Source of the DNA: Minisyncoccota bacterium
Lineage (GTDB): Bacteria > Patescibacteriota > Minisyncoccia > UBA6257 > 2-01-FULL-56-20
NCBI GenBank assembly: GCA_022843285.1
Contig: JALHNY010000003.1
Coordinates: 25,533 to 89,532 of the forward strand
DNA: 64,000 nt
Direction of reading: 5' to 3'
The notes beneath the pieces are model-generated. The model made no database searches and was not told the DNA's origin. It saw nothing but the letters and a program-made list of their open reading frames with translations. Positions 24,558-43,639 of the stretch are shown here, piece after piece. The position numbers and the translations under genes were made by a program. Each line of letters opens with the position of its first letter. Positions within the stretch are counted from its first letter, which is position 1.

Positions 24558-27044
24558 ATGAGTCTCATGCACCATCCGCACGAAAAGCCCCACGAGAAGG
24601 GCTTGCTGGGAAAAATTCACATCAGCAAAGAGTTCTCTGGAAAGAGTCGCACGCACAAAATTCTGGTGGGAGTCGGCCTCCTCGCCGGCATCGGCGTCGT
24701 GCTCGGTGGCATTCTCGTGCTCGCGGTCGCGGCGACGCTCCCGTCCGACAGCGAAATTGCGAACCTCAAGATTCCGGAATCAACCAAGATCTTCGACCGC
24801 ACCGGGGAGGTGCTCCTGTACGACATGAGCGAGAACCAGCAGCGCGTGGTGGTTCCCCTCTCCGAGTTTCCGCAGCAGCTGAAGGACGCGACCATCGCGA
24901 TTGAGGATCCCCGATTCTACTCCACGCCGGGCATCGACCTGCTCGGCATCGGGCGCGCCATGATCAAGAACATCCTCGCGGGTGAAATTGTCGAGGGTGG
25001 ATCCACGATTACCCAGCAGCTCGCGAAAAAAGTTTTCCTCACCGATGACCGCACCTTCACGCGAAAGGCGAAGGAGGCGCTCCTGGCCATCAAGCTGTCC
25101 AGGTACTACACCAAAGATGAGATCCTGGAGCTGTACCTGAACCAGATTCCGTACGGCCCCACCATCAACGGCGCGGAGACGGCGGCGCAGATGTACTTCA
25201 ACAAGCCGGTCCGGGAGATCTCACTCGCGCAGGCAGCGCTGCTGGCTGCGCTCCCGCAGTCTCCGGTGCGCTACTCGCCGTGGGGCAAGAACACCGACCA
25301 GCTCTTCGCGCGCCAGAAGCGCGTGCTCAAAGCGATGCTCGACCAGGACAAAATCACGCAAGAGCAGTACGACCAGGCGGTCGCGGAAGAGATCACGTTC
25401 AAGGAGCGCTTCAACAGCATCAAGGCTCCGCACCTCTCCCTGATGGTGCAGGACTACGTGGTCGAGAAGTACGGCGAAGAGGCGGTGGGTCGCGGCGGGC
25501 TGCGCATCACGACCACGCTGGATTGGAAGATGCAGGAAGCTGCCGAGAAGGCGGTCCTCGAGGGAGCCAAGCGCAACGAGAGCCTGTACGGGGGAACCAA
25601 CGCGGCGCTCATGGCCATTGACCCCAAGACGGGACAGGTGCTCGCGCTCGCCGGCAGCCGCGACTACTTTGACGAGTCCATAGACGGCAACTACAACGTG
25701 CCCTTCCAGGCACTCAGGCAGCCCGGATCGACCCTGAAGCCGCTCGTGTACATGGCGGCGTTCATGAAGGGCTACACGCCCAGCACGCAGGTGTACGACG
25801 TGCCCACCGAGTTCGTGTCCGGAGACCCCAACTGCCCGGCAATCCCGAACTTCGCGAGCGGCGAGGGGAGCTGCTTCCACCCCCAGAACTTTGACGGCGC
25901 GTTCCCGGGTCCGGTGTCCCTCCGCTCCGCGCTCGCCCAGTCTCGCAACGTGCCCGCCGTGAAGGCCCTCTACCTCGTGGGGCTGCGGGACATGCTCGGT
26001 CTCGCGGAGCAGCTCGGGCTCACCACGCTCGGGTCAGCGGAGCGTCTCGGCCTCTCGCTCGTCCTCGGTGGCGGCGAGGTGCACCTCGCAGACCTCGTGC
26101 GCGCGTACAGTGTCTTCCCGGGAGACGGGTCCATCCATGACCGCGCCGTGATCTTGGAAATCAAAGACGAGCAGGGTGAGGTGCTCGAGAAGTTTGAGGA
26201 CAAAGTCACGAAAGTTGTGGATCCCGAGTACCCGCGGATGATCAACAGCATTCTCACGGACGTGAACGAGCGCGGCCGCCTGCTCGGATCCAGCTTGAGT
26301 TCCACCATTTTCGACGGGTACGACGTGGCCCTGAAAACCGGCACCACGAACGACTACCGGGACGCGTGGGCAATCGGGTACACGCCGTCCATCGTGGTCG
26401 GCGTCTGGGCGGGCAACAACAACAACCGCCCCATGGTCTCGCAGGGATCGAGCCTCGTTGCGGCAATCCCGATTTGGTCCCAGTTCCTCCGAGAGGCGCT
26501 CCCACTCTTCCCGCAGGGAGAGGCGCTCGCAAAGTCGAACGGGCCGACCACGGGCAAGCCAATTCTCGACGGCAACCCGATGCCGGACGGCACGGCGCAC
26601 AGCATCTTGCACTGGGTAGATCGCTCTAACCCGACCGGCCCCCCTCCGAGTAATCCCGGATCAGACCCCCAGTACAGCAACTGGGAGACGGCGGTGCAGG
26701 TCTGGGCCGGCAACATGTCAAGCTCGTCTACCTCCACCACTCCCGGATCTGCGGCAATCTCAATCTCCCTCCGTGAACCCTCCGGACCCATTTCTGGACG
26801 TGAGGTTGAGTTCTCGGGAACGGCGAACCTCACCCAGGAAGCGGGAGACGACGAGATTGATGAGGTCGTCATTCTCTGGAACGGCAGCCAGGTGCGCCGC
26901 TTCCGTGGAAACTTCGGCAGCAGCTATGATTTCTCTGGAAGCTTCCGGAATAACGATGGCGAGGGGAGCCACACGTTCGTCGTCCTGGTGCGCACCAAAA
27001 CGGGAGCGGAGAACTCCCGGAGCATCGAGGTCACAGCCGAGTAG
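24558..27044 (+). CDS. class A penicillin-binding protein (bifunctional glycosyltransferase/transpeptidase) with an extra C-terminal domain
   Basis: GT51 motif IAIEDPRFYSTPGID; transpeptidase motifs STLKP, SRN and KTGTT; single N-terminal TM helix; 828 aa. Confidence 0.85.
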   Translation: MSLMHHPHEKPHEKGLLGKIHISKEFSGKSRTHKILVGVGLLAGIGVVLGGILVLAVAATLPSDSEIANLKIPESTKIFDRTGEVLLYDMSENQQRVVVPLSEFPQQLKDATIAIEDPRFYSTPGIDLLGIGRAMIKNILAGEIVEGGSTITQQLAKKVFLTDDRTFTRKAKEALLAIKLSRYYTKDEILELYLNQIPYGPTINGAETAAQMYFNKPVREISLAQAALLAALPQSPVRYSPWGKNTDQLFARQKRVLKAMLDQDKITQEQYDQAVAEEITFKERFNSIKAPHLSLMVQDYVVEKYGEEAVGRGGLRITTTLDWKMQEAAEKAVLEGAKRNESLYGGTNAALMAIDPKTGQVLALAGSRDYFDESIDGNYNVPFQALRQPGSTLKPLVYMAAFMKGYTPSTQVYDVPTEFVSGDPNCPAIPNFASGEGSCFHPQNFDGAFPGPVSLRSALAQSRNVPAVKALYLVGLRDMLGLAEQLGLTTLGSAERLGLSLVLGGGEVHLADLVRAYSVFPGDGSIHDRAVILEIKDEQGEVLEKFEDKVTKVVDPEYPRMINSILTDVNERGRLLGSSLSSTIFDGYDVALKTGTTNDYRDAWAIGYTPSIVVGVWAGNNNNRPMVSQGSSLVAAIPIWSQFLREALPLFPQGEALAKSNGPTTGKPILDGNPMPDGTAHSILHWVDRSNPTGPPPSNPGSDPQYSNWETAVQVWAGNMSSSSTSTTPGSAAISISLREPSGPISGREVEFSGTANLTQEAGDDEIDEVVILWNGSQVRRFRGNFGSSYDFSGSFRNNDGEGSHTFVVLVRTKTGAENSRSIEVTAE

Positions 27045-30945: not shown

Positions 30946-31357
30946 GCAGTTCGTAGAAAAAACCCTGAAGTTGCTGGGTTTTGAGGACGTTAAGGTCTCG
31001 GTAGACGAGGACGGGCGCCGGGGCGCGCTGGTTATCGAGGGGCTGGATGGCGAGCACCTGCAGGACATGATCATGGCCACGAACGCCCTGGTTGCCAGGC
31101 ACGCAGAGAAGCACAAAGAGAAGGCCCCCTTCTTCGATATCAACGGGTACCGCGCCCAGCGCGAGGAGCTCATCTCTTCAATTGCGGCAGCGGCGGCGGA
31201 GAGGGTTCTCCAAAAAATGGAGGCCATCAGTCTCCCTCCCATGAACTCGTACGAGCGCAGGCTCATCCACGAGCACGCCTCTCAGGTTCCCGGAGTCAGC
31301 AGTGAGAGCGCCGGCGAGGGCAAGGAGCGCCACGTGGTTATTTCCCCCGAGGCCTAG
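30926..31357 (+). CDS. jag: Jag/KhpB-like R3H-domain RNA-binding protein
   Basis: C-terminal R3H-like segment …YERRLIHEHASQVPGV…; conserved position after yidC. Confidence 0.7.
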   Translation: MQKLPPEQFVEKTLKLLGFEDVKVSVDEDGRRGALVIEGLDGEHLQDMIMATNALVARHAEKHKEKAPFFDINGYRAQREELISSIAAAAAERVLQKMEAISLPPMNSYERRLIHEHASQVPGVSSESAGEGKERHVVISPEA

Positions 31358-32496
31358 ATTGCAGATTTGTACAGTGCGCCGGTGATGCGGTCTAGGTAGT
31401 AGACGGTGCTGCCAACCACCTGCAGGTCGGTGGCATCAACGGGAGCTGGCGTTGCAATGGTGAAATCTACGGAACGGGTTTCCAGGTTCACGCCCACGAG
31501 GACGTCATCGCTGAAGAACTCCTTGCGGTAGTAGGCGTCCGGGAGTGTTTTTCTCTGCAGGTCATCTTGGTCACGAGGTGCGCCGCAAACAACGTAGGGC
31601 GTCTCCTCATCCTCACCCGTGGGCATGCCAAAGAATGTGCACTTGTCTGGGATGGTGGTGAAAGAGAGCACCGCCTGCTCGATGCCGCCCACGATGAGCT
31701 TGGTGCGTCCGCCAGATCGGTACTGGTTAGCCTGGAAGGCCAGTGCGGTCTGCGCCGCGTCGTCCCACTTCGCTGCGTAGCCGAGCTTGCCCCGTGCAGC
31801 AATGGTCACGCGACCAGACGCCACGTCTACCGCCCAGGTAGAGCCGGCGCTCTGGTAGTTGGGCTTATCGGTCACGAGGATGGTCTGGGCATTGGGCCAG
31901 TCAATGGCTACGTCGCCCAGGGCGAGAGCCACCACCGTCCGAACGGTGCGGCCGAGTGCCGTGTCGTAGATGCCGATGGCAGTCTTTCCGGTAGCTGTGT
32001 CAGGCGTGAGCGTGGCGAGCTGGCTTCCCGAGGGCGCCCACGTCGCATCGCGGAAGGTGCCGGGGACAACGCGCCAGGTTGCGGAGGCAACCTCAAAAAT
32101 GTTGACCTGAGTGCGAGGCTGGTTACCCGTGAGCACCAGAATGCGGCTCCCATCGCCCGAGAAAGATGCGGATGCAAAATTCTCAACCGGCTTGTTGGAC
32201 AGGCTGGTGACCGTGGTGCTGGCAACGCGATCTATCGTGCCGTCCCTGTGCACTGCGACCACGCTCTCATCCGCGTACACGTAGTAAGCAGCAATGTCAG
32301 AAACGGGGATGGTCGCCTCGGCTAGGAACTCTCCGTTGCCCGGGTCTGCGGGGTTAAACTCCCCTCCAATTTCGGGGAGGTTACCGGCTGCGTCCCCCGC
32401 CCCGCTTGAGCCGCCGAGGAGCCAGTACCCCGCCAGGCCGATGAGGGCCAGCACGAGCAGCAAGACCAGAATGATGATTATTCGACGTCGGTTCAT
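31354..32496 (-). CDS. membrane-anchored hypothetical protein, possibly a beta-propeller
   Basis: N-terminal TM helix (IIIILVLLLVLALIGLAGYWLL) and a Thr/Ser/Gly-rich repeat-like extracytoplasmic region. Confidence 0.4.
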   Translation of the reverse strand: MNRRRIIIILVLLLVLALIGLAGYWLLGGSSGAGDAAGNLPEIGGEFNPADPGNGEFLAEATIPVSDIAAYYVYADESVVAVHRDGTIDRVASTTVTSLSNKPVENFASASFSGDGSRILVLTGNQPRTQVNIFEVASATWRVVPGTFRDATWAPSGSQLATLTPDTATGKTAIGIYDTALGRTVRTVVALALGDVAIDWPNAQTILVTDKPNYQSAGSTWAVDVASGRVTIAARGKLGYAAKWDDAAQTALAFQANQYRSGGRTKLIVGGIEQAVLSFTTIPDKCTFFGMPTGEDEETPYVVCGAPRDQDDLQRKTLPDAYYRKEFFSDDVLVGVNLETRSVDFTIATPAPVDATDLQVVGSTVYYLDRITGALYKSAI

Positions 32497-32517
32497 GCTA
32501 AGTGCCCAAATTATAGC

Positions 32518-33447
32518 TTACTTTTTCTTGCAAGCAGGCTGACTTTGGATGCGGGTGATCTGCTCCTGGGTCAGACCGCCCCAGGTGCCCGAGGGGCACC
32601 CCTCGACGTGGAAGTGGTTGCCCGTCGAGCGCCCAGAAGCTTTGAAGCCGCACCCCGCGAATTCGTTCTTGTAGTACTCGTTGAGTGCAAAAACCCCGCA
32701 CGCGGTGAGGGCGTCGTAGAAGTTCTTCACCGCTTCGCAGTTCCTGGCGTAGCTCGCGGGTAGGACGAAGTCAGCAGAGCAGCCCGTGTAGTGCATGACG
32801 GAGCAGTGCTTGAGGCCGCTCACGGGGTAGGCTTCGGTGAAAATGATGCCGCTCGTGGGGACACCCAGCCTGTCAGCTGCGCACTTCACGCCGTTCACGA
32901 TGACCTTGTGGGCCGTGCACTCAGTGGAGACCTGGCACTTGAAGCCAGCCGCTGCAAGGTTTGAGCACCCCTGCGGGTTGCTTATGCAGGTGTCGGTTGC
33001 GGGCGGCACGACGCCGTTGCCCCTGGTGGTTCCTCCCGTTGTCGGCTGCTCCTGGTCCTGCTCAACCACAATCTGGTAGTTCGTGTCCCACCCCTCCCCC
33101 CGCTTGCCCTCGAGGGGCGCGAGGTACGGCAGCTGCAGCGTCGTGAGCCCCGGGTTCACGACGGCGAGGATGGCCCCGGCGCCGACGAGCAGGAGCGCCC
33201 CCACGAGGGCCTGCACGATGCGGTCCCACGCGTCCGCGAGCGCCGCGGGGTTGCCCCGGGAGAGCGTGTACTGGACCGCCCCGTACGCGATGCTCCCCAG
33301 GGCGAGGAGCCCCGCGACGGCGAGCGCGAGCAGGTACGCGTTCTGCACGAACGCGAGGACGCCCCCGTCCTGGCTCGGGTCCAGGGGGCCGGGGAGGCCG
33401 GGGGTGATCTTGGTTGCAGCTGCCCGCGCCGCCTCAATTAGCATCAC
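32518..33447 (-). CDS. double-TM (VirB2/TrbC pilin-like) N-terminus fused to a Cys-rich LAS/M15-type zinc-peptidase-like domain; putative cell-wall hydrolase
   Basis: Two long hydrophobic helices are separated by a short loop within residues ~30-100. The C-terminal domain carries H-x6-D (HYTGCSAD) and H-x-H (NHFHVEG), the zinc-ligand signature of LAS enzymes (M15/VanY-like). It also has many paired Cys. Confidence 0.45.
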   Translation of the reverse strand: MMLIEAARAAATKITPGLPGPLDPSQDGGVLAFVQNAYLLALAVAGLLALGSIAYGAVQYTLSRGNPAALADAWDRIVQALVGALLLVGAGAILAVVNPGLTTLQLPYLAPLEGKRGEGWDTNYQIVVEQDQEQPTTGGTTRGNGVVPPATDTCISNPQGCSNLAAAGFKCQVSTECTAHKVIVNGVKCAADRLGVPTSGIIFTEAYPVSGLKHCSVMHYTGCSADFVLPASYARNCEAVKNFYDALTACGVFALNEYYKNEFAGCGFKASGRSTGNHFHVEGCPSGTWGGLTQEQITRIQSQPACKKK

Positions 33448-34118
33448 TGAACCGGATCCAGGCTCACGCTGGCCTCAGCTCCCTCGCTCTCGGAGAGTGC
33501 ATTCTCCACGGACACGCCCACGTCCGCACCCTGCGTCGGGATTCCATCAACGGTGATGCTCAGTTCTCGCGGATCTCCGCTCGCCTCGGGAACCATCCCG
33601 TTGATGGTCCACGTGTAGAGCAGGTCATCAGCCGATGCCACGTTGAACGAGTACGGTGTTGCCTTGAAGTAGTTCTCCCCGGACCTCAGGAAAGACCCCC
33701 CGGGTGCCTCGATGACCACGCTGGGTTCAGCAAAAGGGACCACCATTGTTGCCTCGGTCGCGCTGAACGGTGCGCCGACAATCTGGACCCGGACATCGAT
33801 GTAGTCATCAGAAAACTCGGAGACGCGGAAGGTCGTCGAGAAGAGCCCCGGGCCACTCTGGTAGAGGTCGTCGTTGATGAACCAGCGAACCTCGTAGTTT
33901 CTCAGGTCTGCGGGGCGGCCATTCACCAGGGCTTCAACCAGCAGCAGGACGCTGCCACCCACCGGCGATGCCACCTTGCCCGCGTACCCCTCGGGGCTCA
34001 GAGCGTTGCTCCTCCAGGAGACCATGAGATCGCTGCTGGGAGTTGCGGGTGCCTGGGCGAACGCCGGATTCGCCACCGCAAAAGCAAGTGCGACACCTGC
34101 GGTGAGAAACTTGAGCAT
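33444..34118 (-). CDS. secreted hypothetical protein (signal peptide, 224 aa)
   Basis: N-terminal signal peptide MLKFLTAGVALAFAVANPAFA-QA; the start overlaps the upstream stop by 4 nt. Confidence 0.4.
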   Translation of the reverse strand: MLKFLTAGVALAFAVANPAFAQAPATPSSDLMVSWRSNALSPEGYAGKVASPVGGSVLLLVEALVNGRPADLRNYEVRWFINDDLYQSGPGLFSTTFRVSEFSDDYIDVRVQIVGAPFSATEATMVVPFAEPSVVIEAPGGSFLRSGENYFKATPYSFNVASADDLLYTWTINGMVPEASGDPRELSITVDGIPTQGADVGVSVENALSESEGAEASVSLDPVQ

Positions 34119-34157
34119 GATGCTAATTGTACCTTTTCCCGCTACCGGCTCCCAGCC

Positions 34158-34946
34158 CTACCCTGCTGGCTTGGGTGGTTGGCTGCGGCTGGTCGTTTTT
34201 GCTCCCGTGACGTCAACGTCAATGACGTCGGTGAGCTCTGGGAGGTTGTCCCGCTCGAGTTCCTCGTACGGGGCGAAGAACGGGTTGCCCGCTTCTTTAG
34301 AATCGGGGTTGCGGCTTTCAGAAATACCGGTTCTGGCCATCTCGTACGCCTGCTTCATCTTAGATTTCTTCGGCAGGTACCCATCTCCGGCACCCCGGTT
34401 GCCGCTCTCGGGGATAGAGCGCAGGGGTCCGGGCAGGCGCTGGCGGAGGTCGCTGACCTTCTTCTTGTACTGCTCAGCTTTTTTCTCAACCTGCTCGAGC
34501 TTCTGCATGCGCGCCGCCACCCGCTCTCCGGCAGCTGCCGCCTTGGCGCCGGCCATGTTTTTCGAGGGAATGTACTGGACCACCGTAGAGGCAATCTTGC
34601 TCTGGTCTGTTGCGATCACGAGAATTGCGCCAACCAGGTAGAGGGGCAGGTAGTCCACGATGGGGATGTACTCCGCGAAGTACATCACGAGGAACCGCAC
34701 CATGGGGCGCATGGAGGGAATCCCCTTGTAGATCAGGTAGATGAGCAGGATGACCGCCATGGCGGTCGCCAGAATATCCGCAATCGGGATTTCAAATGCG
34801 AGCGTGTCGGCAATGCTCAGGATGTCGAGGATGAGCGAGACAATGATGAGCAGGGCTGCGCCCACTTTGCCTATCTTGTGCGCGTTCCCAGTGTCCTCTC
34901 CCGCATCTGGATTGCCACCGGCGGCCATGGTTTGGTACCGGTCCAT
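34158..34946 (-). CDS. hypothetical membrane protein (3 TM plus coiled-coil/basic tail)
   Basis: Lies immediately downstream of the VirB4-like gene; has hydrophobic helices and a Lys-rich coiled-coil. Confidence 0.4.
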   Translation of the reverse strand: MDRYQTMAAGGNPDAGEDTGNAHKIGKVGAALLIIVSLILDILSIADTLAFEIPIADILATAMAVILLIYLIYKGIPSMRPMVRFLVMYFAEYIPIVDYLPLYLVGAILVIATDQSKIASTVVQYIPSKNMAGAKAAAAGERVAARMQKLEQVEKKAEQYKKKVSDLRQRLPGPLRSIPESGNRGAGDGYLPKKSKMKQAYEMARTGISESRNPDSKEAGNPFFAPYEELERDNLPELTDVIDVDVTGAKTTSRSQPPKPAG

Positions 34947-34949
34947 CGT

Positions 34950-36671
34950 CTACACGAGCCCCGTTTCCTCGAGGAGCTGCTGGGGATTTGTGGTGATGAG
35001 CTTGTCCTCAAAGAAGGACGGAATGATCTGGAGGGCGATGTGGCGCTGCCCGGCGAAGAACAGGCCGGTGCCCACCTCCGCGGTCAGGAGGAGGTTCTTC
35101 TCGGTCTCGGTTAGGTTGAAGGCTTTGCCCACAATGTCGATGGTTGCGGGAGCCTGCTTGAGCAGGAGCTGCACGGACGAGTTCGTGATAATCGGGCGGC
35201 CGTACGGGGAGCGGAGGAAGTCCTCCACGTCCTGCGTGATGGTGGAGACGCCGAGGTAGTACTTGCGGGCGCGCTTCACCAGGCCGAAGAGGAAGTTAGC
35301 ACTGTCCTCGTTCTTCATCATGATCCAGGCCTCATCGATGAAGAGCAGGCGCTTCTGGAACCGGGCGCGGATGAGGTTCCAGATGAAGTTGAGGATGACG
35401 TACATGGCCACGGGGCGGAGCTGCTCCTCGAGGTCACGAATCGAGAACACAATGAGGCGGTTGTTGAGGTCAATGTTCGTGGGCTTGTTCACGAATCCGG
35501 AGAAGCTGCCCTGCGTGTACTTGTACAGGCGCTCGGCAAGGGAGCGGCCGCCGTCGATGCTGCGCAGGACCGTCTCGAGGTCCTCCAGAATCGGAGGCTG
35601 AGCCTTGGAAAAATCCTCTCCGGCAACAATTTCACGGCTGGCGTACGTCTCCGTGATGGCGCGGTCCAGGAGGGCGTCCTCTTCGCTCGTCATCTCGCCG
35701 AGCATGAGGCGCGCGAGGCCGGCGACCGAAACGATGTGGGACCGCAGAACGTCCGAGGCAGACTCGTTGGGTGGGACGATGGGAATGTCGAACGGGTTAA
35801 TCGTGTTGTTGCTGGTCAGCGAGATGTTGAAGAAGCTTCCCCCGAAAGCCTCGGTGAGCTTCTGGTACTCGTTCTCGGGGTCGATGACGATGATGTTGGT
35901 GCCCATCATCAGCGAGCGGATAATTTCCAGTTTCGTCGCGTAGCTCTTTCCAGAGCCGGACTTTGCGAACACCACCTGGTTGGCGTTCTCCAGGCTGAAG
36001 CGATCGAAGATGACCAGGCTGTTGTTGTGCCGGTTGATGCCGTACATGATGCCCTCCTCGCTCATGAGGTCCTCTGCCACGAACGGGAAGAACGAGGAGA
36101 GCGGCCCCGAGTTCATGGGGGTTGTGACGTTGATTTTGTCCTGGGAGAGAGGAATCGTGGATAGGAGGCCCTGGAGCTGCTGGAATAGAGCCGGCTTGAG
36201 GTACACGAGCTTGGCTTCGAGCATGGACGTAATCTTGGATTCGAGCTTGGACAGTGCGACCTCTGAATCAGCGTAGATAGTGATGTACACGCCCACCGTG
36301 AAGAGCTTCTCCTGCGCCTGCTGGAGGGTGTCGCGGAGGCCCTCGACGTCATCGAGGGCAGTCTCGAGCTGCGGGTCGCGCACGAGACCCTTGTCAGCGG
36401 CCGTGTTCATCTGGGCTTCCACCTGGGCTGCCTTCTTGCGGAGCTGCTTGAGTGCCAGGCCCGTGTCGAACGGGTTCACGAACATGGCAATGTCCAACAG
36501 CTCAGGCAGGTTCACGATGGGCTCGAACCAGCCGGTGGTCAGGAACCTCGGGTAGCCGAAGAAGAAGAGAGTCTTCGCGTACTTGGTGCCGATTTTGACG
36601 CTCGACGATCCCACCTCTACGCCTGCGGGTGAGATGATCTGCTTCGCGGACTGGAATGCTGAGTCTGGCAT
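34950..36671 (-). CDS. VirB4/TrbE/CagE-family T4SS ATPase, ATPase portion
   Basis: Walker A VVFAKSGSGKSYATK, Walker B LLFIDEAWIMM, and a 'GYPRFL' segment typical of Gram-positive VirB4 homologues. Its start ATG lies 2 nt after the stop of the upstream ORF encoding the VirB4 N-domain. Confidence 0.8.
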   Translation of the reverse strand: MPDSAFQSAKQIISPAGVEVGSSSVKIGTKYAKTLFFFGYPRFLTTGWFEPIVNLPELLDIAMFVNPFDTGLALKQLRKKAAQVEAQMNTAADKGLVRDPQLETALDDVEGLRDTLQQAQEKLFTVGVYITIYADSEVALSKLESKITSMLEAKLVYLKPALFQQLQGLLSTIPLSQDKINVTTPMNSGPLSSFFPFVAEDLMSEEGIMYGINRHNNSLVIFDRFSLENANQVVFAKSGSGKSYATKLEIIRSLMMGTNIIVIDPENEYQKLTEAFGGSFFNISLTSNNTINPFDIPIVPPNESASDVLRSHIVSVAGLARLMLGEMTSEEDALLDRAITETYASREIVAGEDFSKAQPPILEDLETVLRSIDGGRSLAERLYKYTQGSFSGFVNKPTNIDLNNRLIVFSIRDLEEQLRPVAMYVILNFIWNLIRARFQKRLLFIDEAWIMMKNEDSANFLFGLVKRARKYYLGVSTITQDVEDFLRSPYGRPIITNSSVQLLLKQAPATIDIVGKAFNLTETEKNLLLTAEVGTGLFFAGQRHIALQIIPSFFEDKLITTNPQQLLEETGLV

Positions 36672-36673
36672 GG

Positions 36674-37339
36674 CTACGCGGCGGGGGCGGTTGGCATGGG
36701 AACGTCGGTGCGCTCAATCGTGTCGGGGTTGTAGAAGTTGTAGTACAGCTCTACCAGCTCCTGGTTGTTGAGAATGGTAGCCTCGAGGCCAATCTGGCGG
36801 ATGCCGTCTATGACCGACTCGACCCTCTGCTGGAGCTGCCCCGCGTTCTCCTTGAAGGTGCTCTCGGTGGAAGCTTTCATTTCCTCCTCGTTCTTCTTTT
36901 TTCCGAAGAAGGGCAGCGAGCTCGTCACGCTGCTCGCGGACGGAAGGTTCATCGGGTAGTACGGGACCACCACGATGAACATCTTGCGCATGATGGCGAA
37001 CTGGGAGACGAAGCCGCGAATGAACTCCTGGTACTCGTTCATCTGGTTGCGGAGGAGGCCGCTCGGCTCGTCGGAGCGGCGCTTCTCCAGGAGCGAGAGG
37101 TACTTCTCGATGTTGATCTTGCGAGAGTGAATGACAATCTGGACCTGGTAGTCCAGTGCGTTGAGAAAGTTCTGGTACGCGCGGACGATCACGTTCTGCT
37201 CCTCCTCAGACTTGAGGGCGAAGTTGGTGCCGCCAACCATGACGAGCTGGCACATGCCTCCGCCGCGCAGCATGACGATGTTGTCCCTGATGTCAGAGAT
37301 CTCAACCAGGTCCTGGGAGTTCGCCGCGTTTGAAGCCAT
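36674..37339 (-). CDS. VirB4 N-terminal domain (CagE_TrbE_VirB-like) encoded as a separate ORF
   Basis: …ISDIRDNIVMLRGGG…FALKSEEEQNVIVRAYQNFLNALDYQVQIVIHS… follows the pattern at the start of Gram-positive VirB4 proteins. It ends in TAG and is in a different frame from the downstream ATPase ORF. Confidence 0.6.
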   Translation of the reverse strand: MASNAANSQDLVEISDIRDNIVMLRGGGMCQLVMVGGTNFALKSEEEQNVIVRAYQNFLNALDYQVQIVIHSRKINIEKYLSLLEKRRSDEPSGLLRNQMNEYQEFIRGFVSQFAIMRKMFIVVVPYYPMNLPSASSVTSSLPFFGKKKNEEEMKASTESTFKENAGQLQQRVESVIDGIRQIGLEATILNNQELVELYYNFYNPDTIERTDVPMPTAPAA

Positions 37340-37371
37340 GGAGGTATTATCTGCGATGGAACTGCTGGATG

Positions 37372-37878
37372 CTAGCCGGTGAAATCGACGCGCTTGGCTG
37401 CCCGGAGCTCGCCGGTGACCTGGCGGAACACCTCGAACGTGCTCTCCGCGGCGGGGTCGCGGACGTCTTTCTGCTCGGCTTTGCTGCCGGTTTGGACGTA
37501 CTGCCAGGTCTTTTTGAGGCTGGTGCCCGAGATGATGCTCTCGAGGTTCAAGCTGCCGCTGACCTGGTGCATGGTCTCGGTGTTCTTGGGCATCTGGGGC
37601 TTATCCGGCTGCCAGAGGTAGAGCTGGGGGTTCCAGTAGAAGAGGAAGCCGAGGATGACGAGCTTTGAGAGCTTCTGCCCGTTCACTTTGACGAACGCGA
37701 GGCTGATGCCAGCTCCGCCAACCACCAGGGCGAAGAGGATGAAAAGGAAGCTCTGGAAGAAGAAGTACAGAACGAAGATCAGGGCTGCCGTGATGCAGAC
37801 GTAGATAAACTGGCGAATCGTGAAGGGACCCGCGATTTTATCCTCGGTATCGATGAACTGTGGGATCTGGTACTGCAT
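37372..37878 (-). CDS. PrgI-family / VirB3-like small membrane protein
   Basis: N-terminus MQYQIPQFIDTEDKIAGPFTIRQFIYV followed by two TM helices matches, from memory, the PrgI family found upstream of VirB4 in Gram-positive T4SS loci. Confidence 0.55.
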   Translation of the reverse strand: MQYQIPQFIDTEDKIAGPFTIRQFIYVCITAALIFVLYFFFQSFLFILFALVVGGAGISLAFVKVNGQKLSKLVILGFLFYWNPQLYLWQPDKPQMPKNTETMHQVSGSLNLESIISGTSLKKTWQYVQTGSKAEQKDVRDPAAESTFEVFRQVTGELRAAKRVDFTG

Positions 37879-37908
37879 GGCGCCTCCTGGGCGCTAGTCT
37901 ACCACGCT

Positions 37909-39000
37909 TTACGCCTTCGGAGGTGCCGGAAGGTCGTCTATGGGGGTCGGAGCTCCAGCGTGGGTCGGCGCGGGCGCAGTCGGAGTTTCCGAGTAGTCCA
38001 CGTTCTTTGCGTCCGCTGGAATCGGAGCTTCGAGGACGTCAGTCGCGTGCTTGCGGTTGGCCCCAAACTTTGCGGAGTGCCACGGGGCAATCTTGCTGAT
38101 AATGCTGTCCACGAAGCCGGAAGGGGCTGCGTCAGGCTCTGGCTGCATCGGAACGGAGACCACCTCTGGAGAGGGCGTGACGGGCAGGTCCATTGCCGGC
38201 ATTGGGGTGGTCGCGAGCGGCACCGGGGCGGTCATCGAGAACGCCGGAGGGGCGACGTTCTGCGCGGAGTAGTCGATCTCCTGCAGCTGCGGCGTCTTCT
38301 TCTCCACGAAAATGGACTGGAACTTCGAGTCCAGGCTGGCCGCCGTGCCGAGGTCGATGCGGGCCGCCCTGCGGGGAGGGGCGGATGGCGTAACGCCAGG
38401 CGCAATGTTGCCGCTGCCCATGGGGCCGCCAATGCTCGCCGTTGCAGCAGATACCTGCTGCTGGTTTGCGAGGGCATCGCTGTGGAGCGGCAGGGGGGCC
38501 GGGGCAGCAGAGGTCGGCACGAACGCTGGCACCGAAGCCGTGCCGGCCACCGGGGCGGGCACGACCCGCTGCGGTGCCACGGGGGTGGAGCTCGGCATGC
38601 TCGCGGGTGCGCCGGAGATTGCAGATCCGCGAAGGTCGAGCTGGGGGCCGATGGGAACGGGCACCGTTTTCTTGGTTGCAGCGCCCAGCTCCTCTTCTCC
38701 GATGCCGAAGCGGACCAGGTCGTTGGCAATGGGGAGGAGAATTTTTAGCTTCACCTCTTCGTAGACAGAGCGAGCGAGGGCCGGCGTAATGCCGAGCTCA
38801 GTAGCGAGCCTGCCCTCAAATTCGGAGAGCTTGATGTCGCGCACCTCGAGAGCGAAGAGGAGCCTCGGGAGGGCAGTTTCAGTTTCCGGCAGTGAGAACT
38901 TCTGCTCGATGTCGACGATAGCCTGGTCAACGGCATCGCTCCAGAACCAATCCTGGATTGGCTGCGGTACTGCTCTCAGTTTTTCTTGTGCGGTGGCCAT
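37909..39000 (-). CDS. hypothetical protein with a Pro/Ala-rich low-complexity C-terminal two-thirds
   Basis: 363 aa, a ~110-aa N-terminal globular region then a P/A/S/T-rich repeat region; no TM helix. Confidence 0.4.
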   Translation of the reverse strand: MATAQEKLRAVPQPIQDWFWSDAVDQAIVDIEQKFSLPETETALPRLLFALEVRDIKLSEFEGRLATELGITPALARSVYEEVKLKILLPIANDLVRFGIGEEELGAATKKTVPVPIGPQLDLRGSAISGAPASMPSSTPVAPQRVVPAPVAGTASVPAFVPTSAAPAPLPLHSDALANQQQVSAATASIGGPMGSGNIAPGVTPSAPPRRAARIDLGTAASLDSKFQSIFVEKKTPQLQEIDYSAQNVAPPAFSMTAPVPLATTPMPAMDLPVTPSPEVVSVPMQPEPDAAPSGFVDSIISKIAPWHSAKFGANRKHATDVLEAPIPADAKNVDYSETPTAPAPTHAGAPTPIDDLPAPPKA

Positions 39001-39009
39001 GGTTGCAGT

Positions 39010-41274
39010 TTAGCTAGTTCCCCAGAGCTGGTTAATCGCGTCCTGCTTCGTCTTCACCTCGCCCTTCGAGTCCACCGTCGACTGGAGCTTGGCGCGCGCC
39101 CTCTCGCGGCGGGTCTCGAAGTTGACGCTCTTCTCCAGCGTGTTGAGCATCGCCTTGATCTTCGTTTCGGTGGTGCGCTTGTGGTTCTTGAGGCCCTCAG
39201 CGTCGAGTTTGAGATCCTTGAAGTACGCTTCCCACTTCTTGTCGTCCCCGTTTGCCTTGTCCTCCTCAATCATCTTGCTGAGGAAGTCGAGCGTGCTGTC
39301 GATGTGGTCAATGGTGAGCGGGTTGATGTCACCAATTTTCTTGAGGGTGCCGGTGTTGATGGCGAGCGTGTTGAGCGCCTGCCCGAGCTGGACGCCGCCA
39401 TCGTCATCTTCCTTGGGGCCGAACATGGTGACCTCGTTGGCGATGTTGATGACGTTGTCTGGCTTGATGGCGCCGACGTAGCCCGCGATGGCTTCCTCCT
39501 TGGTGATGACGTCGCTGTCGTCTTTGGCGTCCTTGCGCTTCTTGAGCGGAGCAAACTCTGCCAGGCGAGGATCTGCCTCGAGGACGTCCTTGAGGTTGCC
39601 GGCGTCAGCCTGCCTCTTGAAGAGCTTCTCGAGCTTCTCCTTTTCGACCTGCTCAGCTTTTTTCTTCTTTTCAGGGTCTTCGGTCTCCCCCATCTCGCCC
39701 TTGCTGCGGGTCTTGGCTGCGGTTGAGATGCGCTCATCCATCTGCTTCTTGATGTCCCCGAGGCCCTTCTTGTCTTTGAGGAGCTCGAGAATGGCCGCCT
39801 CGCGGTCCGGGTTCGCAGCGAGCGAGCCACTGCTGAGGCGATCCAGCTCCTTGAGGAGGGCGTCCTTGGTGAGGCCGCCGAGGTCAGTCTTGTACCCCTT
39901 GATGCGCTCCTCGGGACCCTTGCGATCTACGACACCCGCTTTGGCAATGGCAGAGCCGGCCGCGCCCAGGCCGACCATGCGAGCGGCGCGGTTCCCCGAG
40001 GCGAGGGTGGAGAGTCGTGATCCGAAGCGCTGGAGCCTCGAGTTGCCGTCCGCATCCTTGCCCGAGCTGCGGGCACGATCGAGCGCGCGCAGGCCAGCGT
40101 TCTTGGAGCGTGTCGTGACCTGTCGCTTCACGGAGTTGCCCGCGGATTCCATTATTTTCACACCGGTGCCCGCTACGCCGATGCCCATTTTGTGCGCGAG
40201 GTAGAGGCCTCCCCACAGTGCGCCGCCGATGATGCCAGCGGTCATGATTTGATCCACCATCGGCTGCAGGAAGCTGCCCAGAATTCCAGAGAACGCGTTG
40301 AGCACGCCCTTGTTAGCAGATGCCGCTGTTCCCAGTCCGCCTGATGCGTTGATGCCACCAGAAGCGGCGAACACGTCGGCAATGCGGAGACCCAGGTACA
40401 GGAAGAACAGGGCTACCGGGCCGAAGAAGGTCCACTTGATGAACAGGTTCATCCACTTGGATACGTACGACTGGGAGAACGGGAAGATCCAAGCGACCCA
40501 GACACCGGGGAGCATGACCAGCAGCAGTCCTAACCAGATGTACCTCAAGAAGAAAGCTACGATCATCACCCCGAGGAACAGGAGCACCTGGAAAATGAGG
40601 GCAACCGTGATGAAGACGCTGACAATCATCGCGTACATCTGGCCAGCGTTGGCAGCGGCATCGCCAAACTGCTTAGCCCACTCGTCCTTCGGGTCACCCT
40701 TGATGAAACCCTGCTGCGGCTGCGTTGCCGTTGCGAGCCTGTCGGCAAACTCAAAGAACTGGGTGTTGCCGTCTCCGGTGGGCACGGACGCGTTCAGGAA
40801 GAACATGGATAGCTGATCTGAGAACGACAGGGCGGTACCAGCGAGAACCAAGCTGAAGTTCACGCCAACCGCGGCGATGACAATCTTGAGGAGCAGCTGC
40901 CTGACGCCGTACGTGTTCCAGCGGACAATCGTGGCAACAGCCATCGTGATGACGGCAGCGACGAAGAGGATGTTGGCGAATGCCAGGACAATAGAGAAGC
41001 CAACCGATACCGTCGGTGAGTTAACAATGTCGAGGTTGAGCCGCATGACGACGCCCAGGAAGAAAGCCTCGATTGCAATGAAGAGCGCTCCAATTGAAGC
41101 AATGGCCCACGAAATTGCGTACGTCGCGTAGAGGAAGGCACTGAAGATGCCACCCTTGACCGACTCGAAGAGGTCAAAGATGGACCAAGCAGCGTGAGCC
41201 TGCTCGGGAACGAGCAGGAGCAGCGCGCCCAGTGCCGCAGCAGTGCCGAAGCCAAGGATCCTCGCTCTATTCAT
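39010..41274 (-). CDS. VirB6/TrbL-like polytopic T4SS membrane protein with a long charged C-terminal extension
   Basis: Signal-like N-terminus, at least seven TM helices with a conserved-looking GxxxW region, then a ~380-aa Lys/Glu/Asp-rich tail. The start is set at the internal Met (MNRARILGF…), 4 nt from the upstream stop. Confidence 0.5.
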   Translation of the reverse strand: MNRARILGFGTAAALGALLLLVPEQAHAAWSIFDLFESVKGGIFSAFLYATYAISWAIASIGALFIAIEAFFLGVVMRLNLDIVNSPTVSVGFSIVLAFANILFVAAVITMAVATIVRWNTYGVRQLLLKIVIAAVGVNFSLVLAGTALSFSDQLSMFFLNASVPTGDGNTQFFEFADRLATATQPQQGFIKGDPKDEWAKQFGDAAANAGQMYAMIVSVFITVALIFQVLLFLGVMIVAFFLRYIWLGLLLVMLPGVWVAWIFPFSQSYVSKWMNLFIKWTFFGPVALFFLYLGLRIADVFAASGGINASGGLGTAASANKGVLNAFSGILGSFLQPMVDQIMTAGIIGGALWGGLYLAHKMGIGVAGTGVKIMESAGNSVKRQVTTRSKNAGLRALDRARSSGKDADGNSRLQRFGSRLSTLASGNRAARMVGLGAAGSAIAKAGVVDRKGPEERIKGYKTDLGGLTKDALLKELDRLSSGSLAANPDREAAILELLKDKKGLGDIKKQMDERISTAAKTRSKGEMGETEDPEKKKKAEQVEKEKLEKLFKRQADAGNLKDVLEADPRLAEFAPLKKRKDAKDDSDVITKEEAIAGYVGAIKPDNVINIANEVTMFGPKEDDDGGVQLGQALNTLAINTGTLKKIGDINPLTIDHIDSTLDFLSKMIEEDKANGDDKKWEAYFKDLKLDAEGLKNHKRTTETKIKAMLNTLEKSVNFETRRERARAKLQSTVDSKGEVKTKQDAINQLWGTS

Positions 41275-43639
41275 CGAGGGTGGGCAGCGGGATGTTGCAG
41301 GCTCGGTCGCGCAGGTTCTCCTGTGCGGCATCGCGGAGGCCATCAATCTGAGCGACGCGAATGGCAACGCGTGTCAGTACCGAGGCCATGCTCGAGTTGA
41401 TGACGTCCGCCTCGTTCATGTACGTGGCAATGCCCATGGCGGATGTGGAGCTGGCGACGTTGGAGCGGAGTGTGGCCAGCGTCCTCCCCGTGCGGGAGAG
41501 CTCAGTGCGGTCAGTTTCGTTGGTCGGTGCGATCCGATCAATTGCGCCAATGCGCTGGTTCGCGTCCGAGGCGTAGGCGGTGCAGGTGAGGGCCACCGAG
41601 CGCAGCACCGGAACGGTCGAAGACGCCGTGGTGGGCCAGGTTGCCGCAGAGCTCGATGCTTGGTTGATGCGGCTTTCGAGGCTGCCAATGAGCTGGAGAG
41701 CCTGGCTCCTCAGTCCATCGATGTCGGGGTCAGGGTCCCCGCTGCCCGGGAGCGTGCTGGTGCCCGTCGTGCTCGTCGTGCTGGGACCCGGGCCACCGCC
41801 GTCTCCGTTGAACAGGCCCAAGATGCCACGCTCGGCCATGCCGACCAGGCGGGTGATGGCGGCATCAATGAGGACGCCAATGAGCCCCGCCAGATCTTCT
41901 GCGTTGACGATGTTGTCGAGGGAAGCGCCGAGAGCTTTCTCGACCTGGCCAGCCACAGCGCCACCTGGAGTGGTCTGCTGCATGCCACCGGGGCGACAGA
42001 CTTTCACCTCGCAGTACCTGCCCGGTGGCAGTGAAGAGGGAACCGTAGTCGTGCCGCGCGTGATGGTGCTGACCGAGAAGCAGCCGCGTGGACCTATGCC
42101 GACGACGCCCGAACTGCTGGATTGGTTCATGGTTTGGTACTGACCCTCCGTCATGATCTCGAGGTCGTAGCTCACGCACCGCTCCATCCCCTTGTACCCC
42201 TGGTTGGCGGCAGCATTTTGGCTCGCGGCCTCAGCGCTAGCCTGGGACTGTCGGGCAATTTGCTCGTTGGCTAGGATGACAGCTCCGAAGACGTTGTTCT
42301 CGGGGAGGACGGAGCTCAGGAAGCCTGCCCAGCCGCCCGCGCGGAAATCGTCATAGAAGGCGCGGATGTTCTGCACAACCTGATCTAGGGTGCAGGTAAT
42401 CGGGGTTTGGCGCGTTTCGGGTATGAAGGCGCGAGCTCCTCCCGAGGCGAACGTTGAGAAGTTGGTACACAATTGGGGCGCAATCATGGTGAGGGCTTGG
42501 TTGGCAGCCCCCACGCCAGCATCCGTCAGGAACTTCTTCCAGTTCGTGATGAACTGGGGCTTGCCGCCGCCCTGGACCCACTTGATGGTCTGCTGAATCA
42601 TGCGGCCCACAATCTGGTTCTTGAGGATTTGGGTCGCAATTTTTCTGGCCCACTCCACGAGCGTCTGCGTCCAGGTACCGGCAATGCCAACGCCGTTGAA
42701 GATGCTGACGATGATGTGCTTGATGTCCGTGAAAACGAACGCGTGAGCGGAGGAAACGCCGAGCATCGACGCAATCATGAAAGGCTCGCGCGCTTGCGCG
42801 AACATCTCGGGAGCCTTCTCCTCGAACTGCGTTACCGCAAGGTGTACCCGAGCTTCCTCCTGTGCCCGCAGCTCGGGGAACTTTGCGGTGAAGACCACCG
42901 CCTTGAGCGGATCGGTCGCGTAGTTGATGTCGCTGAGCTGCCGGTTGAGCTCGAGGTACGTGAGGAGTGAGCGGTGCATGTCCGCTGCTGGCTCCGGGAC
43001 GGTCGCATTGTAGAGTGCCTCCTGCGCATCGGAAAAGATGAAGTTCGAAGCTTGCATGGAGGCTTCGGTCGGCTCTCCGTAGGAAGCGCGAGCCATCAGG
43101 CCGGAGATGCCGCGATCGCTGTTGATCTTCGACATGGTTTGGTCGAGGGTCGTGAAGTACTCGTCGACCTGCGTCGTCGTGTAGTTGCGCACCACTTTCA
43201 CCCTGCCCTCATCGATGGCGTACGTCGTGGGGGCCATCGCCGCGTCGGTGACGTACTCGTCAACGAATGACTCGATGTCGATCGGGGGTGCGATGCCGTA
43301 CCCCTCTTCCGGCCCGTTCGGGTTCTGCTTCACGAACTCGTACGCCAGGCCCTTGGCGAGAGTATCCGTGTAGTTCTCCCGGGTTGTGATGGTCGGGGAG
43401 AACTCTTTCGCTAGGTCGTAGCCTTCCACGACGCGCCCGCCGGGGATTTCTTCAATGAGCGCCGTGTCTCCAATCTTGGGGACCTGCGACTCGGCATTTT
43501 TTTGCACCGTGCGCGCGATGAGGGCGTCCCCCTCGCTGCGCTGGCGTGCGAGGCTCGTGACAGCGAGCGTTGCAGAGCCAGCCAGAAGGGCGAGGACCAA
43601 GAAGGTCGTTACGAGCCGCCGGAGATCGTGACTCTGCAT
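41267..43639 (-). CDS. large (790 aa) N-terminally membrane-anchored extracytoplasmic protein, hypothetical (first gene of the T4SS-like cluster)
   Basis: Single N-terminal TM helix (LVTTFLVLALLAGSATLAV) and a long Ser/Thr/Gly-containing ectodomain. No family recognised. Confidence 0.45.
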   Translation of the reverse strand: MQSHDLRRLVTTFLVLALLAGSATLAVTSLARQRSEGDALIARTVQKNAESQVPKIGDTALIEEIPGGRVVEGYDLAKEFSPTITTRENYTDTLAKGLAYEFVKQNPNGPEEGYGIAPPIDIESFVDEYVTDAAMAPTTYAIDEGRVKVVRNYTTTQVDEYFTTLDQTMSKINSDRGISGLMARASYGEPTEASMQASNFIFSDAQEALYNATVPEPAADMHRSLLTYLELNRQLSDINYATDPLKAVVFTAKFPELRAQEEARVHLAVTQFEEKAPEMFAQAREPFMIASMLGVSSAHAFVFTDIKHIIVSIFNGVGIAGTWTQTLVEWARKIATQILKNQIVGRMIQQTIKWVQGGGKPQFITNWKKFLTDAGVGAANQALTMIAPQLCTNFSTFASGGARAFIPETRQTPITCTLDQVVQNIRAFYDDFRAGGWAGFLSSVLPENNVFGAVILANEQIARQSQASAEAASQNAAANQGYKGMERCVSYDLEIMTEGQYQTMNQSSSSGVVGIGPRGCFSVSTITRGTTTVPSSLPPGRYCEVKVCRPGGMQQTTPGGAVAGQVEKALGASLDNIVNAEDLAGLIGVLIDAAITRLVGMAERGILGLFNGDGGGPGPSTTSTTGTSTLPGSGDPDPDIDGLRSQALQLIGSLESRINQASSSAATWPTTASSTVPVLRSVALTCTAYASDANQRIGAIDRIAPTNETDRTELSRTGRTLATLRSNVASSTSAMGIATYMNEADVINSSMASVLTRVAIRVAQIDGLRDAAQENLRDRACNIPLPTLDE

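Follow-up and report, generated by a model that had tools for sequence, protein, structure and literature searches.

A VirB2-type pilin module joined to a Hedgehog/DD-peptidase-like domain: a putative wall peptidase in the type IV secretion cluster of a Minisyncoccota bacterium

How does a type IV secretion system (T4SS), or the pilus that it builds, pass through a thick Gram-positive wall, be it that of its owner or that of a host? The question is raised by a single gene at positions 32518-33447 of a 64,000-nucleotide (nt) stretch of DNA from a Minisyncoccota bacterium (contig JALHNY010000003.1 of assembly GCA_022843285.1; the whole stretch is called the window below), whose predicted product joins a VirB2/TrbC-type pilin module to a Cys-rich domain of the Hedgehog/DD-peptidase (LAS) fold. 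Patescibacterial T4SSs, arrays of VirB2-like pilins and a Hedgehog/DD-peptidase protein encoded beside virB4 have already been described (PMC10633639, PMC12102498, PMC12857230). The Patescibacterial system is also the first T4SS on which the growth of its owner was shown to depend, and its role at the host surface is unexplained (PMC10633639; PMC12857230). It is unusual among monoderm systems in that VirB2-like pilins are present. A wall peptidase at the C-terminus of a pilin would tie these two puzzles together and offer a testable route for the machine or the pilus through such a wall. A literature search revealed no description of a pilin-hydrolase fusion, nor of heads being swapped on a conserved stalk.

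The open reading frame (ORF) proposed at these positions in the original prediction stands, with 309 amino acids (aa) counted from a GTG start codon, and it lies on the minus strand; the adjacent ATG gives a product of 308 aa, as in NCBI protein P0001. A word-indexed search yielded few relatives. When residues 140-309 were compared exhaustively with 1.84 billion cluster representatives using HMMER, 26 matches were obtained (E <= 1e-3), three of which are unrelated Cys-rich repeat proteins. All true members of the family have 223-336 aa and share one layout, in which a linker connects the hairpin to the C-terminal domain. Conservation was judged from alignments of 25 sequences with a mean column identity of 26%. 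The prediction had further pictured the protein as a pilin fused to a LAS-type domain; both halves of this picture are supported by the analyses described below, and the T4SS setting is real.

The N-terminal half had been expected to form two long hydrophobic helices, separated by a short loop, within residues ~30-100. This was borne out by Kyte-Doolittle hydropathy, which peaks at about 28-58 and 76-100, and by the AlphaFold model, with helices at 30-62 and 67-97; the whole unit of about 70 aa is organized as in VirB2/TrbC-type pilins. The proposed pilin architecture was supported in three comparisons: (i) PF18895 (T4SS_pilin) matches 24 of the 25 family members (best E 1.4e-11) and TrbC/VirB2 matches eight, (ii) in hhalign, a profile of eight fusion N-modules aligned with 13 genuine pilin-array pilins (probability 95.6%, E 1.3e-8), the loop motif S-x-G-(N/D)-P included, and (iii) in Foldseek, the hairpin of the model is similar to 8dfu, a subunit of the conjugative pilus of Aeropyrum (probability 0.85, template modelling (TM) score 0.69, root-mean-square deviation 2.0). 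Judged from these comparisons of sequence, the N-terminal module is homologous to Patescibacterial VirB2-like T4SS pilins. A holin reading of the hairpin was rejected (Phage_holin_3_6 match with E 2.9).

The module shares with VirB2/TrbC/PF18895 pilins, including those of Patescibacterial arrays, the two-helix hairpin, the short polar loop (S-x-G-(N/D)-P-x-K/L) and the association with virB4 or pilin arrays. However, ordinary pilins, of about 110-140 aa, stop shortly behind helix 2, whereas the protein studied here adds 200 aa of linker and enzyme and has an unusually short leader: only about 12 residues precede the AxA-like site at which it would be cleaved, in contrast to the classical full signal peptides found ahead of the hairpin in more distant homologues. 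As those homologues have signal peptides and the cysteines are conserved, the topology would be that of VirB2, with both termini outside, which would place the C-terminal head in the wall compartment. The two halves are joined by a disordered linker of about 45 aa (predicted local distance difference test score, pLDDT, <50 at residues 99-141).

The C-terminal domain of the target gave no match in Pfam, PHROGs or single-sequence PDB searches. Hedgehog was reached only through profiles built from the exhaustive representative search; all 22 PDB matches of the 25-sequence domain profile are Hedgehog N-domains (E 0.01-0.2). The AlphaFold2 model of the domain, with pLDDT 83-94 over residues 150-260, was compared with PDB using Foldseek, and the top 31 matches are again Hedgehog N-domains (probability 0.94-1.00, target-normalised TM score 0.50-0.58). 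The predicted structure is of LAS type, in line with the fold that the original prediction had assigned. The closer likeness to VanY/M15 or lysostaphin that it had drawn was not retained, since the structures nearest to the model are of Hedgehog type and the M15 families of Pfam gave no match above threshold; single family members gave sub-threshold matches to HH_signal (0.059), Peptidase_M15_3 (0.071) and Peptidase_M15_4 (0.16). Kinship of the head with phage M15 endolysins was considered and rejected, a BFVD fold search of viral structures having given no meaningful match.

Both motifs on which the peptidase assignment had been based, HYTGCSAD (H-x6-D) and HFH, are present, as H219-D226 and H278-H280; the cysteines number 12, not about 14, with 10 to 12 conserved. 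The head is thus presumed to be rich in disulphides, C223-C284 being one conceivable pair. Across the 25 homologues P208, G222, C223, D226, E257, Y258, C266, H280 and C284 are invariant, and H214, H219 (24/25) and four Cys are conserved in at least 90%. Because D226, H280, G222, C223, E257 and Y258 are invariant, and H219 and H214 so well kept, at such a low mean identity, the motifs do not reflect chance. The profile alignment pairs the family pattern VTEaYPPt..H....HxnGCAVDit with the matching segment of Shh, and thereby H219 with H141, D226 with D148, H214 with H135 and E206 with E127. In hhalign, H278-x-H280 is paired with Shh H181-x-H183. We take Shh H135 to be a conserved neighbour and E127 to be an acid of the Ca2+ site. 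Shh H141 and D148 are zinc ligands (PMC6027127). E257 is probably the general base of the predicted enzyme.

Compared with Hedgehog N-domains and bacterial Hedgehog/DD-peptidases (MEROPS M15A-like; Shh-N 1VHH/3D1M; BacHh of Roelink 2018), the domain has in common (i) the fold (Foldseek probability up to 1.00), (ii) the motifs VTE(G/A)(W/Y), H-x2-G-x-A-x-D and H-x-H, and (iii) a Glu that is conserved in the strand leading up to H-x-H, together with a His located five to six residues N-terminal to the first ligand. It differs in having Pro-Pro/Thr in place of the Ca2+-site acids D130 and D132, an insertion of 15-25 aa with a Cys (C266) between E257 and the H-x-H motif (H280), 10-12 cysteines, a variable first His of H-x-H, the fusion to a pilin, and a similarity too low for any Pfam model. 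As no curated family model matched above cut-off, the domain represents, on the basis of its alignments and model, a sequence family that is new and divergent and that belongs to the Hedgehog/DD-peptidase (LAS) fold; its catalytic set looks intact. A new, highly divergent bacterial branch of this fold is thereby defined.

On balance, and by a modest weight of probability, we regard the fusion protein as a pilin-anchored peptidoglycan peptidase that serves the T4SS, a functional analogue of VirB1/PrgK. The sequence places the gene in one operon with virB4, prgI and the virB6-like gene, and hence in co-expression with them. Its start codon and the stop codon of the upstream gene overlap (GTGATG), which suggests translational coupling to that gene. 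The hairpin would insert into the membrane with both ends outside, as in VirB2 pilins, leaving the Cys-rich domain in the cell-wall compartment. There the head, by homology, would bind Zn2+ through H219, D226 and H280 and cut a peptide bond in the stem peptides or cross-links of peptidoglycan, with E257 and H214 assisting. The pilin module would bring the enzyme to the site of T4SS assembly, so that cutting is local and the wall is opened for the channel or the pilus, which is the job of VirB1, PrgK, TraG and TcpG in other T4SSs. The wall cut in this way would be the bacterium's own or that of its host, and the protein may also ride on the pilus. The lytic role is one that we infer from the domain assignment and the setting.

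PrgK carries a LytM-type (LAS) domain. With the monoderm VirB1-type hydrolases (PrgK of pCF10, TraG of pIP501, TcpG, CD419) the fusion protein shares its encoding in a T4SS cluster, its membrane anchoring and a hydrolase domain predicted to be extracytoplasmic. Those proteins are SLT/lysozyme-like with or without CHAP, whereas the target has neither, with no SLT match or fold; they also use an ordinary transmembrane helix as anchor and carry several domains on one polypeptide, in contrast to the pilin module and the single head per paralogue seen here. With respect to the VirB1 lytic transglycosylases, it is a functional analogue at most. The proposed role also fits, by analogy, the annotation that has been published, from predicted structures, for Ca. 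Southlakia epibionticum ML1, in which SEML1_0007 was assigned a Hedgehog/DD-peptidase domain and SEML1_0006 was annotated as lysozyme-like plus cysteine proteinase (Table S2, PMC10633639). Both genes lie just downstream of virB4, were reported as essential and have been proposed as VirB1 replacements (PMC12102498). SEML1_0007 resembles the target in its Saccharibacteria(-like) source, its position, its structure-assigned domain and its proposed function as a VirB1 substitute, and it belongs to a cluster essential for epibiotic growth. Unlike the target, it has >1100 aa, with the domain at 951-1105, and is not described as a pilin fusion; the two were compared by annotation, not by sequence.

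Several points weigh against the assignment of a pilin-anchored peptidase. Against the target alone, PF18895 scores below threshold (E 0.014; 15.9 bits against the curated cut-off of 26.6), and the leader of only about 12 aa makes the export route uncertain. For the enzyme half, none of the curated models (those of the Peptidase_M15 group, HH_signal, VanY) rises above cut-off, the PDB profile E-values are marginal, the AlphaFold2 model was built on a 9-sequence alignment, and Foldseek with the full-length query gave E 0.013. The Ser and Arg of the classical VanY context ('SxHxxGxAxD' / 'SGYR') are absent from the domain. The conservation check on the H/D/H set held for D226, H280 and H219 but not for the first His of H-x-H, since H278 is variable and replaced by Asn in 6/25 members. 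E257 pairs with the catalytic Shh E177 in the HMMER local alignment but not in the hhalign global alignment, so that this equivalence is provisional.

The stalk is not reserved for one enzyme. Proteins P0003-P0006 and those of homologue loci L003 and L011 share the pilin module of the target and carry a different Cys-rich head. These heads are assigned as SLT-like on the basis of an invariant motif, E-S followed by GL(F/M)QIN, together with sub-threshold Pfam matches (SLT E 0.016, SLT_3 E 0.05); the structure model of P0003 reached a pLDDT of only 40.6, and profile searches of PDB with the SLT-like head gave no match. The fusion of locus L004 (9998-10831) is the positional orthologue of the target, with flanking genes 48% and 43% identical to those of the window, and its head is CHAP/NlpC-P60-like (CHAP E 0.031, CwlO E 0.028; GD-V...H-G-I motif), retaining a candidate Cys motif read in the sequence and a His motif aligned with CwlO. 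In all, three head types were seen on the pilin stalk: Hedgehog/DD-peptidase, CHAP/NlpC-like and SLT-like, which mirror the domain repertoire of the monoderm VirB1-type hydrolases. SLT and CHAP domains are documented in Gram-positive T4SS VirB1 analogues (PMC12102498), and since all three heads belong to wall-hydrolase classes of such analogues, we count them in favour of a T4SS-serving peptidase. The CHAP- and SLT-headed sisters strengthen the proposed link between the essential T4SS and its pilins, and the variety of heads on one stalk suggests how epibionts breach cell walls.

Differently headed paralogues from one genome, or from a near-identical strain, have stalk DNA that is 94-99.7% identical, with sharp breakpoints (individual comparisons are listed in Table 1). 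The contig with the closest counterpart of the target stalk is a short metagenome contig that cannot be shown to belong to the genome of the window. Between genomes the stalk proteins are 56-79% identical, and ordinary array pilins are about 20-27% identical to the stalk. The stalk therefore groups by genome and not by head type, which suggests that the stalks undergo gene conversion or that heads have been swapped repeatedly. Read as an exchange of heads on a stalk homogenised by gene conversion, the pattern is a clear example of proteins evolving by modules.

The same observations are the ground of the strongest rival, in which the fusion protein is an enzyme-headed minor pilin whose module is polymerised into the pilus of the T4SS, either in few copies or only at its tip, so that the heads cut the host wall at the contact site. 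This we consider possible but rather unlikely. The N-terminal module is truly homologous to array pilins, and fusion genes lead or sit within pilin arrays in L002, L005, L007 and L012: in L002 gyrA and an SBP gene precede an array that contains an SLT-like fusion, in L005 the Hedgehog-type fusion of Liptonbacteria leads one, and in L012 the SLT-like fusion (P0005) is followed by one, directly behind a homologue of the gene located upstream of the target. The flexible linker of ~45 aa would let the head project from a filament, and near-identity of paralogous stalks, set against ~25% for array pilins, is expected if differently headed subunits share one assembly site. F-pilin tolerates C-terminal extensions that are displayed on the pilus. 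In type IV pili, modular minor pilins (CofB, TcpB) bear an additional C-terminal domain at the tip of the filament. Pilin module, linker and functional head follow one another in that order in these proteins as well, but they belong to an unrelated filament system (type IV pilus, not T4SS/VirB2) and their heads bind instead of hydrolysing. Patescibacterial T4SSs are thought to be able to build pili (PMC12857230) and are essential for epibiotic growth (PMC10633639). However, no pilus is known to contain such a subunit, a head of 200 aa on every subunit is sterically hard, and the same data fit simple recruitment to the base of the T4SS. Moreover, in the window the fusion gene is the only pilin-like gene, and it lies among ATPase genes rather than in an array. 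A filament acting as a drill in Saccharibacteria and other Patescibacteria, made of array pilins and a few 'tool-bearing' pilins that share one gene-converted stalk with interchangeable wall-cutting heads (Hedgehog/DD-peptidase, CHAP/NlpC-like amidase or peptidase, SLT-like transglycosylase) and open the host wall for the essential epibiotic interaction that depends on the T4SS, is a conceivable but similarly doubtful form of this idea.

A variable C-terminal domain on a constant N-terminal region is also found in polymorphic toxin modules. Accordingly, the pilin-like N-terminus could be an export or trafficking module from which the hydrolase is released, perhaps by cleavage of the linker, against the walls of hosts or competitors, with immunity proteins encoded alongside; we think this very unlikely. 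The swapped enzyme domains and sharp recombination breakpoints do resemble polymorphic toxin loci. In L004 the CHAP-like fusion is followed by an extra membrane-anchored ORF of 145 aa (10839-11276), absent from the window, that could encode an inhibitor/immunity protein or an accessory factor, and behind the SLT-like fusions an anchored protein of 169-186 aa is conserved. Against this, the target has no co-varying immunity gene directly downstream, a gap of 21 nt separating it from a 380-aa gene that is orthologous beside CHAP- and Hedgehog-type fusions; as the genes on either side are orthologues irrespective of the type of head, an immunity-gene model was rejected for the target. There is no evidence of cleavage or release, and the head types are only three, all of them wall hydrolases typical of T4SS assembly factors.

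The head could also be a pseudo-peptidase that binds peptidoglycan or a ligand on the host surface, the fusion protein then being a non-catalytic attachment factor. Hedgehog N-domains are mainly ligands, and Drosophila Hh, which is without the motif, has lost catalysis (PMC6027127). The variability of H278, a Gln in place of H219 in family member P0028 and the lack of a Pfam peptidase match above threshold point the same way. Nevertheless, the zinc triad, E257 and H214 are conserved over phylum-level divergence, when pseudo-enzymes usually lose such residues, and the alternative heads retain their catalytic motifs (E-S and GL(F/M)QIN in the SLT-like, candidate Cys and His in the CHAP-like type), which leaves an adhesin with a probability slighter still than that of a released toxin. 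Least likely of all is a housekeeping DD-/LD-carboxypeptidase or endopeptidase that matures the bacterium's own wall on a generic hairpin anchor and lies near the T4SS by chance: VanY, MepK and other LAS/M15 enzymes are common in wall remodelling and a PBP1A gene is located nearby (24558-27044), but the family is rare (26 of 1.84 billion cluster representatives), every true member has the pilin module, the hairpin is specifically homologous to T4SS pilins, and synteny with virB4 or pilin arrays is kept across distant lineages.

The features of the fusion gene and of its surroundings are listed in Table 1.

Table 1. Features of the fusion gene, its T4SS cluster and related stalk DNA (positions in the window)
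Feature	Position	Strand	Details
Whole gene, pilin-Hedgehog/DD-peptidase fusion	32518..33447	minus	309 aa, stop codon included; ORF/translation, identical NCBI protein P0001, homologues, conserved synteny
Residues 1-28, short N-terminal tail/leader	33364..33447	minus	Ala-rich AxA-like site AARAAA/TKITPGLPGP (slash, possible cut); conserved PG(L/V)PGP(L/V)D motif; alignments; pLDDT <50
Residues 29-108, VirB2/TrbC-type T4SS pilin module	33124..33363	minus	Loop SRGNP between the two helices; NPGL..LxLP motif
Residues 109-149, flexible linker	33001..33123	minus	Low complexity, rich in Gly, Thr, Gln, Glu, Pro; differs between homologues in both length and sequence
Residues 150-290, Cys-rich Hedgehog/DD-peptidase (LAS) domain	32578..33000	minus	PDB profile matches, AlphaFold, Foldseek, weak Pfam matches of members
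H219-YTGCSA-D226, predicted zinc ligands 1 and 2	32770..32793	minus	H-x2-G-x3-D; equivalent to Shh H141...D148 by HMMER alignment
H278-F-H280, with predicted zinc ligand 3 (H280)	32608..32616	minus	H280 equivalent to Shh H183 and invariant, H278 variable; hhalign pairs HIH with Shh HIH
E257, candidate general base	32677..32679	minus	In invariant N-E-Y motif; paired with Shh YYE by HMMER; possibly Shh E177 (provisional)
H214, conserved second-shell His	32806..32808	minus	Aligned with Shh H135 (HMMER)
Block near-identical to an SLT-like-headed pilin gene	33069..33412	minus	LNFM01104986.1 (L009 242-585); blastn 98.3% over 344 nt, 1 mismatch in first 328; flanks unrelated
Stalk DNA, L008 vs L010			One contig; 95.8% over 330 nt; flanks unrelated
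Stalk DNA, L003 vs L004			One contig; 93.6% over 389 nt; flanks unrelated
First cluster gene	within 31354-43639	minus	790-aa anchored protein
Second cluster gene, likely VirB6/TrbL-like channel component	39010..41367	minus	785-aa polytopic membrane protein, many hydrophobic segments; L001 counterpart matches PF19590 TrbL_3
Third cluster gene	between 785-aa gene and PrgI	minus	363-aa protein
PrgI (VirB3-like) T4SS protein	37372..37878	minus	PF12666, E 2e-9
Fifth cluster gene	between PrgI and VirB4	minus	221-aa TraC-like protein
VirB4-like T4SS ATPase	34950..36671	minus	PF19044 TraG P-loop 1.7e-27, plus AAA_10, DUF87
262-aa membrane protein	34158..34946	minus	Translation; same position filled by proteins of 271 aa (L001) and 263 aa (L004)
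224-aa secreted protein with signal peptide	33444..34118	minus	Directly upstream, overlaps fusion start; 43% identical to L004 neighbour, 71% to L012 neighbour
380-aa N-terminally anchored protein	31354..32496	minus	Directly downstream, 21-nt gap; 48% identical to L004 neighbour, 31% to L013 neighbour

The fusion gene is the ninth of a ten-gene cluster on the minus strand (31354-43639) and the third gene downstream of virB4. The gene order is shared with the homologue loci L001 (357-698 kb contig), L004 (a Saccharibacteria metagenome-assembled genome) and L013. The nearest genome matches are Candidatus Saccharibacteria, and a more distant member of the family comes from Candidatus Liptonbacteria. 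By the sequence comparisons made here, the 224-aa secreted protein accompanies the fusion gene as a conserved partner, irrespective of the head that the latter carries, and the 380-aa downstream gene is kept beside both Hedgehog- and CHAP-type fusions. Neither the 380-aa protein nor the 785-aa protein of the window matched a Pfam family. Pfam and pilin searches of the T4SS cluster of the window revealed neither a further wall hydrolase that could be recognised nor another pilin gene, and a second pilin or a pilin array, sought across the whole window, was not found. The cluster is followed by yidC, dnaA and dnaN, in agreement with the origin-proximal layout of the Patescibacterial T4SS described by Quiñonero-Coronel et al.

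In L002 (9270-14094), L003 (8698-13853), L005 (10001-12119) and L012 (976-3991), PF18895 genes form pilin arrays with 2-8 members. Their context is kept across Patescibacterial lineages, in the order gyrA, SBP gene, array, integrase, rpsO, pnp. The first genes of the arrays encode long pilins with Cys-rich C-terminal extensions, e.g. one of 415 aa in L003, in which Cys motifs are repeated.

Some accessory proteins encoded beside the T4SS genes have features in common. Several of them start with M-x-R-R and a transmembrane helix (31354-32496 on the minus strand of the window, 10839-11276 in L004, 10988-11548 in L003, 11015-11554 in L002), and in those of the window, L004 and L003 the helix is followed by a short 'G-x-LPEI(G/P)' motif. 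The ORFs located after the SLT-like fusions (179 aa in L002, 186 aa in L003) share a TDAY...LYP motif.

Two further genes for envelope functions lie within 10 kb of the T4SS cluster, i.e. a PilB-type ATPase of the type II secretion system/type IV pilus kind at 21512-23173 on the minus strand (T2SSE E 7e-111) and a class A penicillin-binding protein (PBP1A, with transglycosylase and transpeptidase domains) at 24558-27044 on the plus strand. Their presence fits a Saccharibacteria-like envelope toolkit grouped at the replication origin. Finally, an 814-aa ORF at 9702-12146 (minus strand), considered as gyrA and rejected as such, encodes a Clp-like ATPase, in which AAA_2/ClpB_D2 is recognisable in the C-terminal half only. 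The N-terminal ~420 aa of this protein are Ala-rich, with one hydrophobic segment and no match to Clp_N or D1, and the gene coincides with a local spike in GC content (72.5% vs about 60-66% elsewhere).

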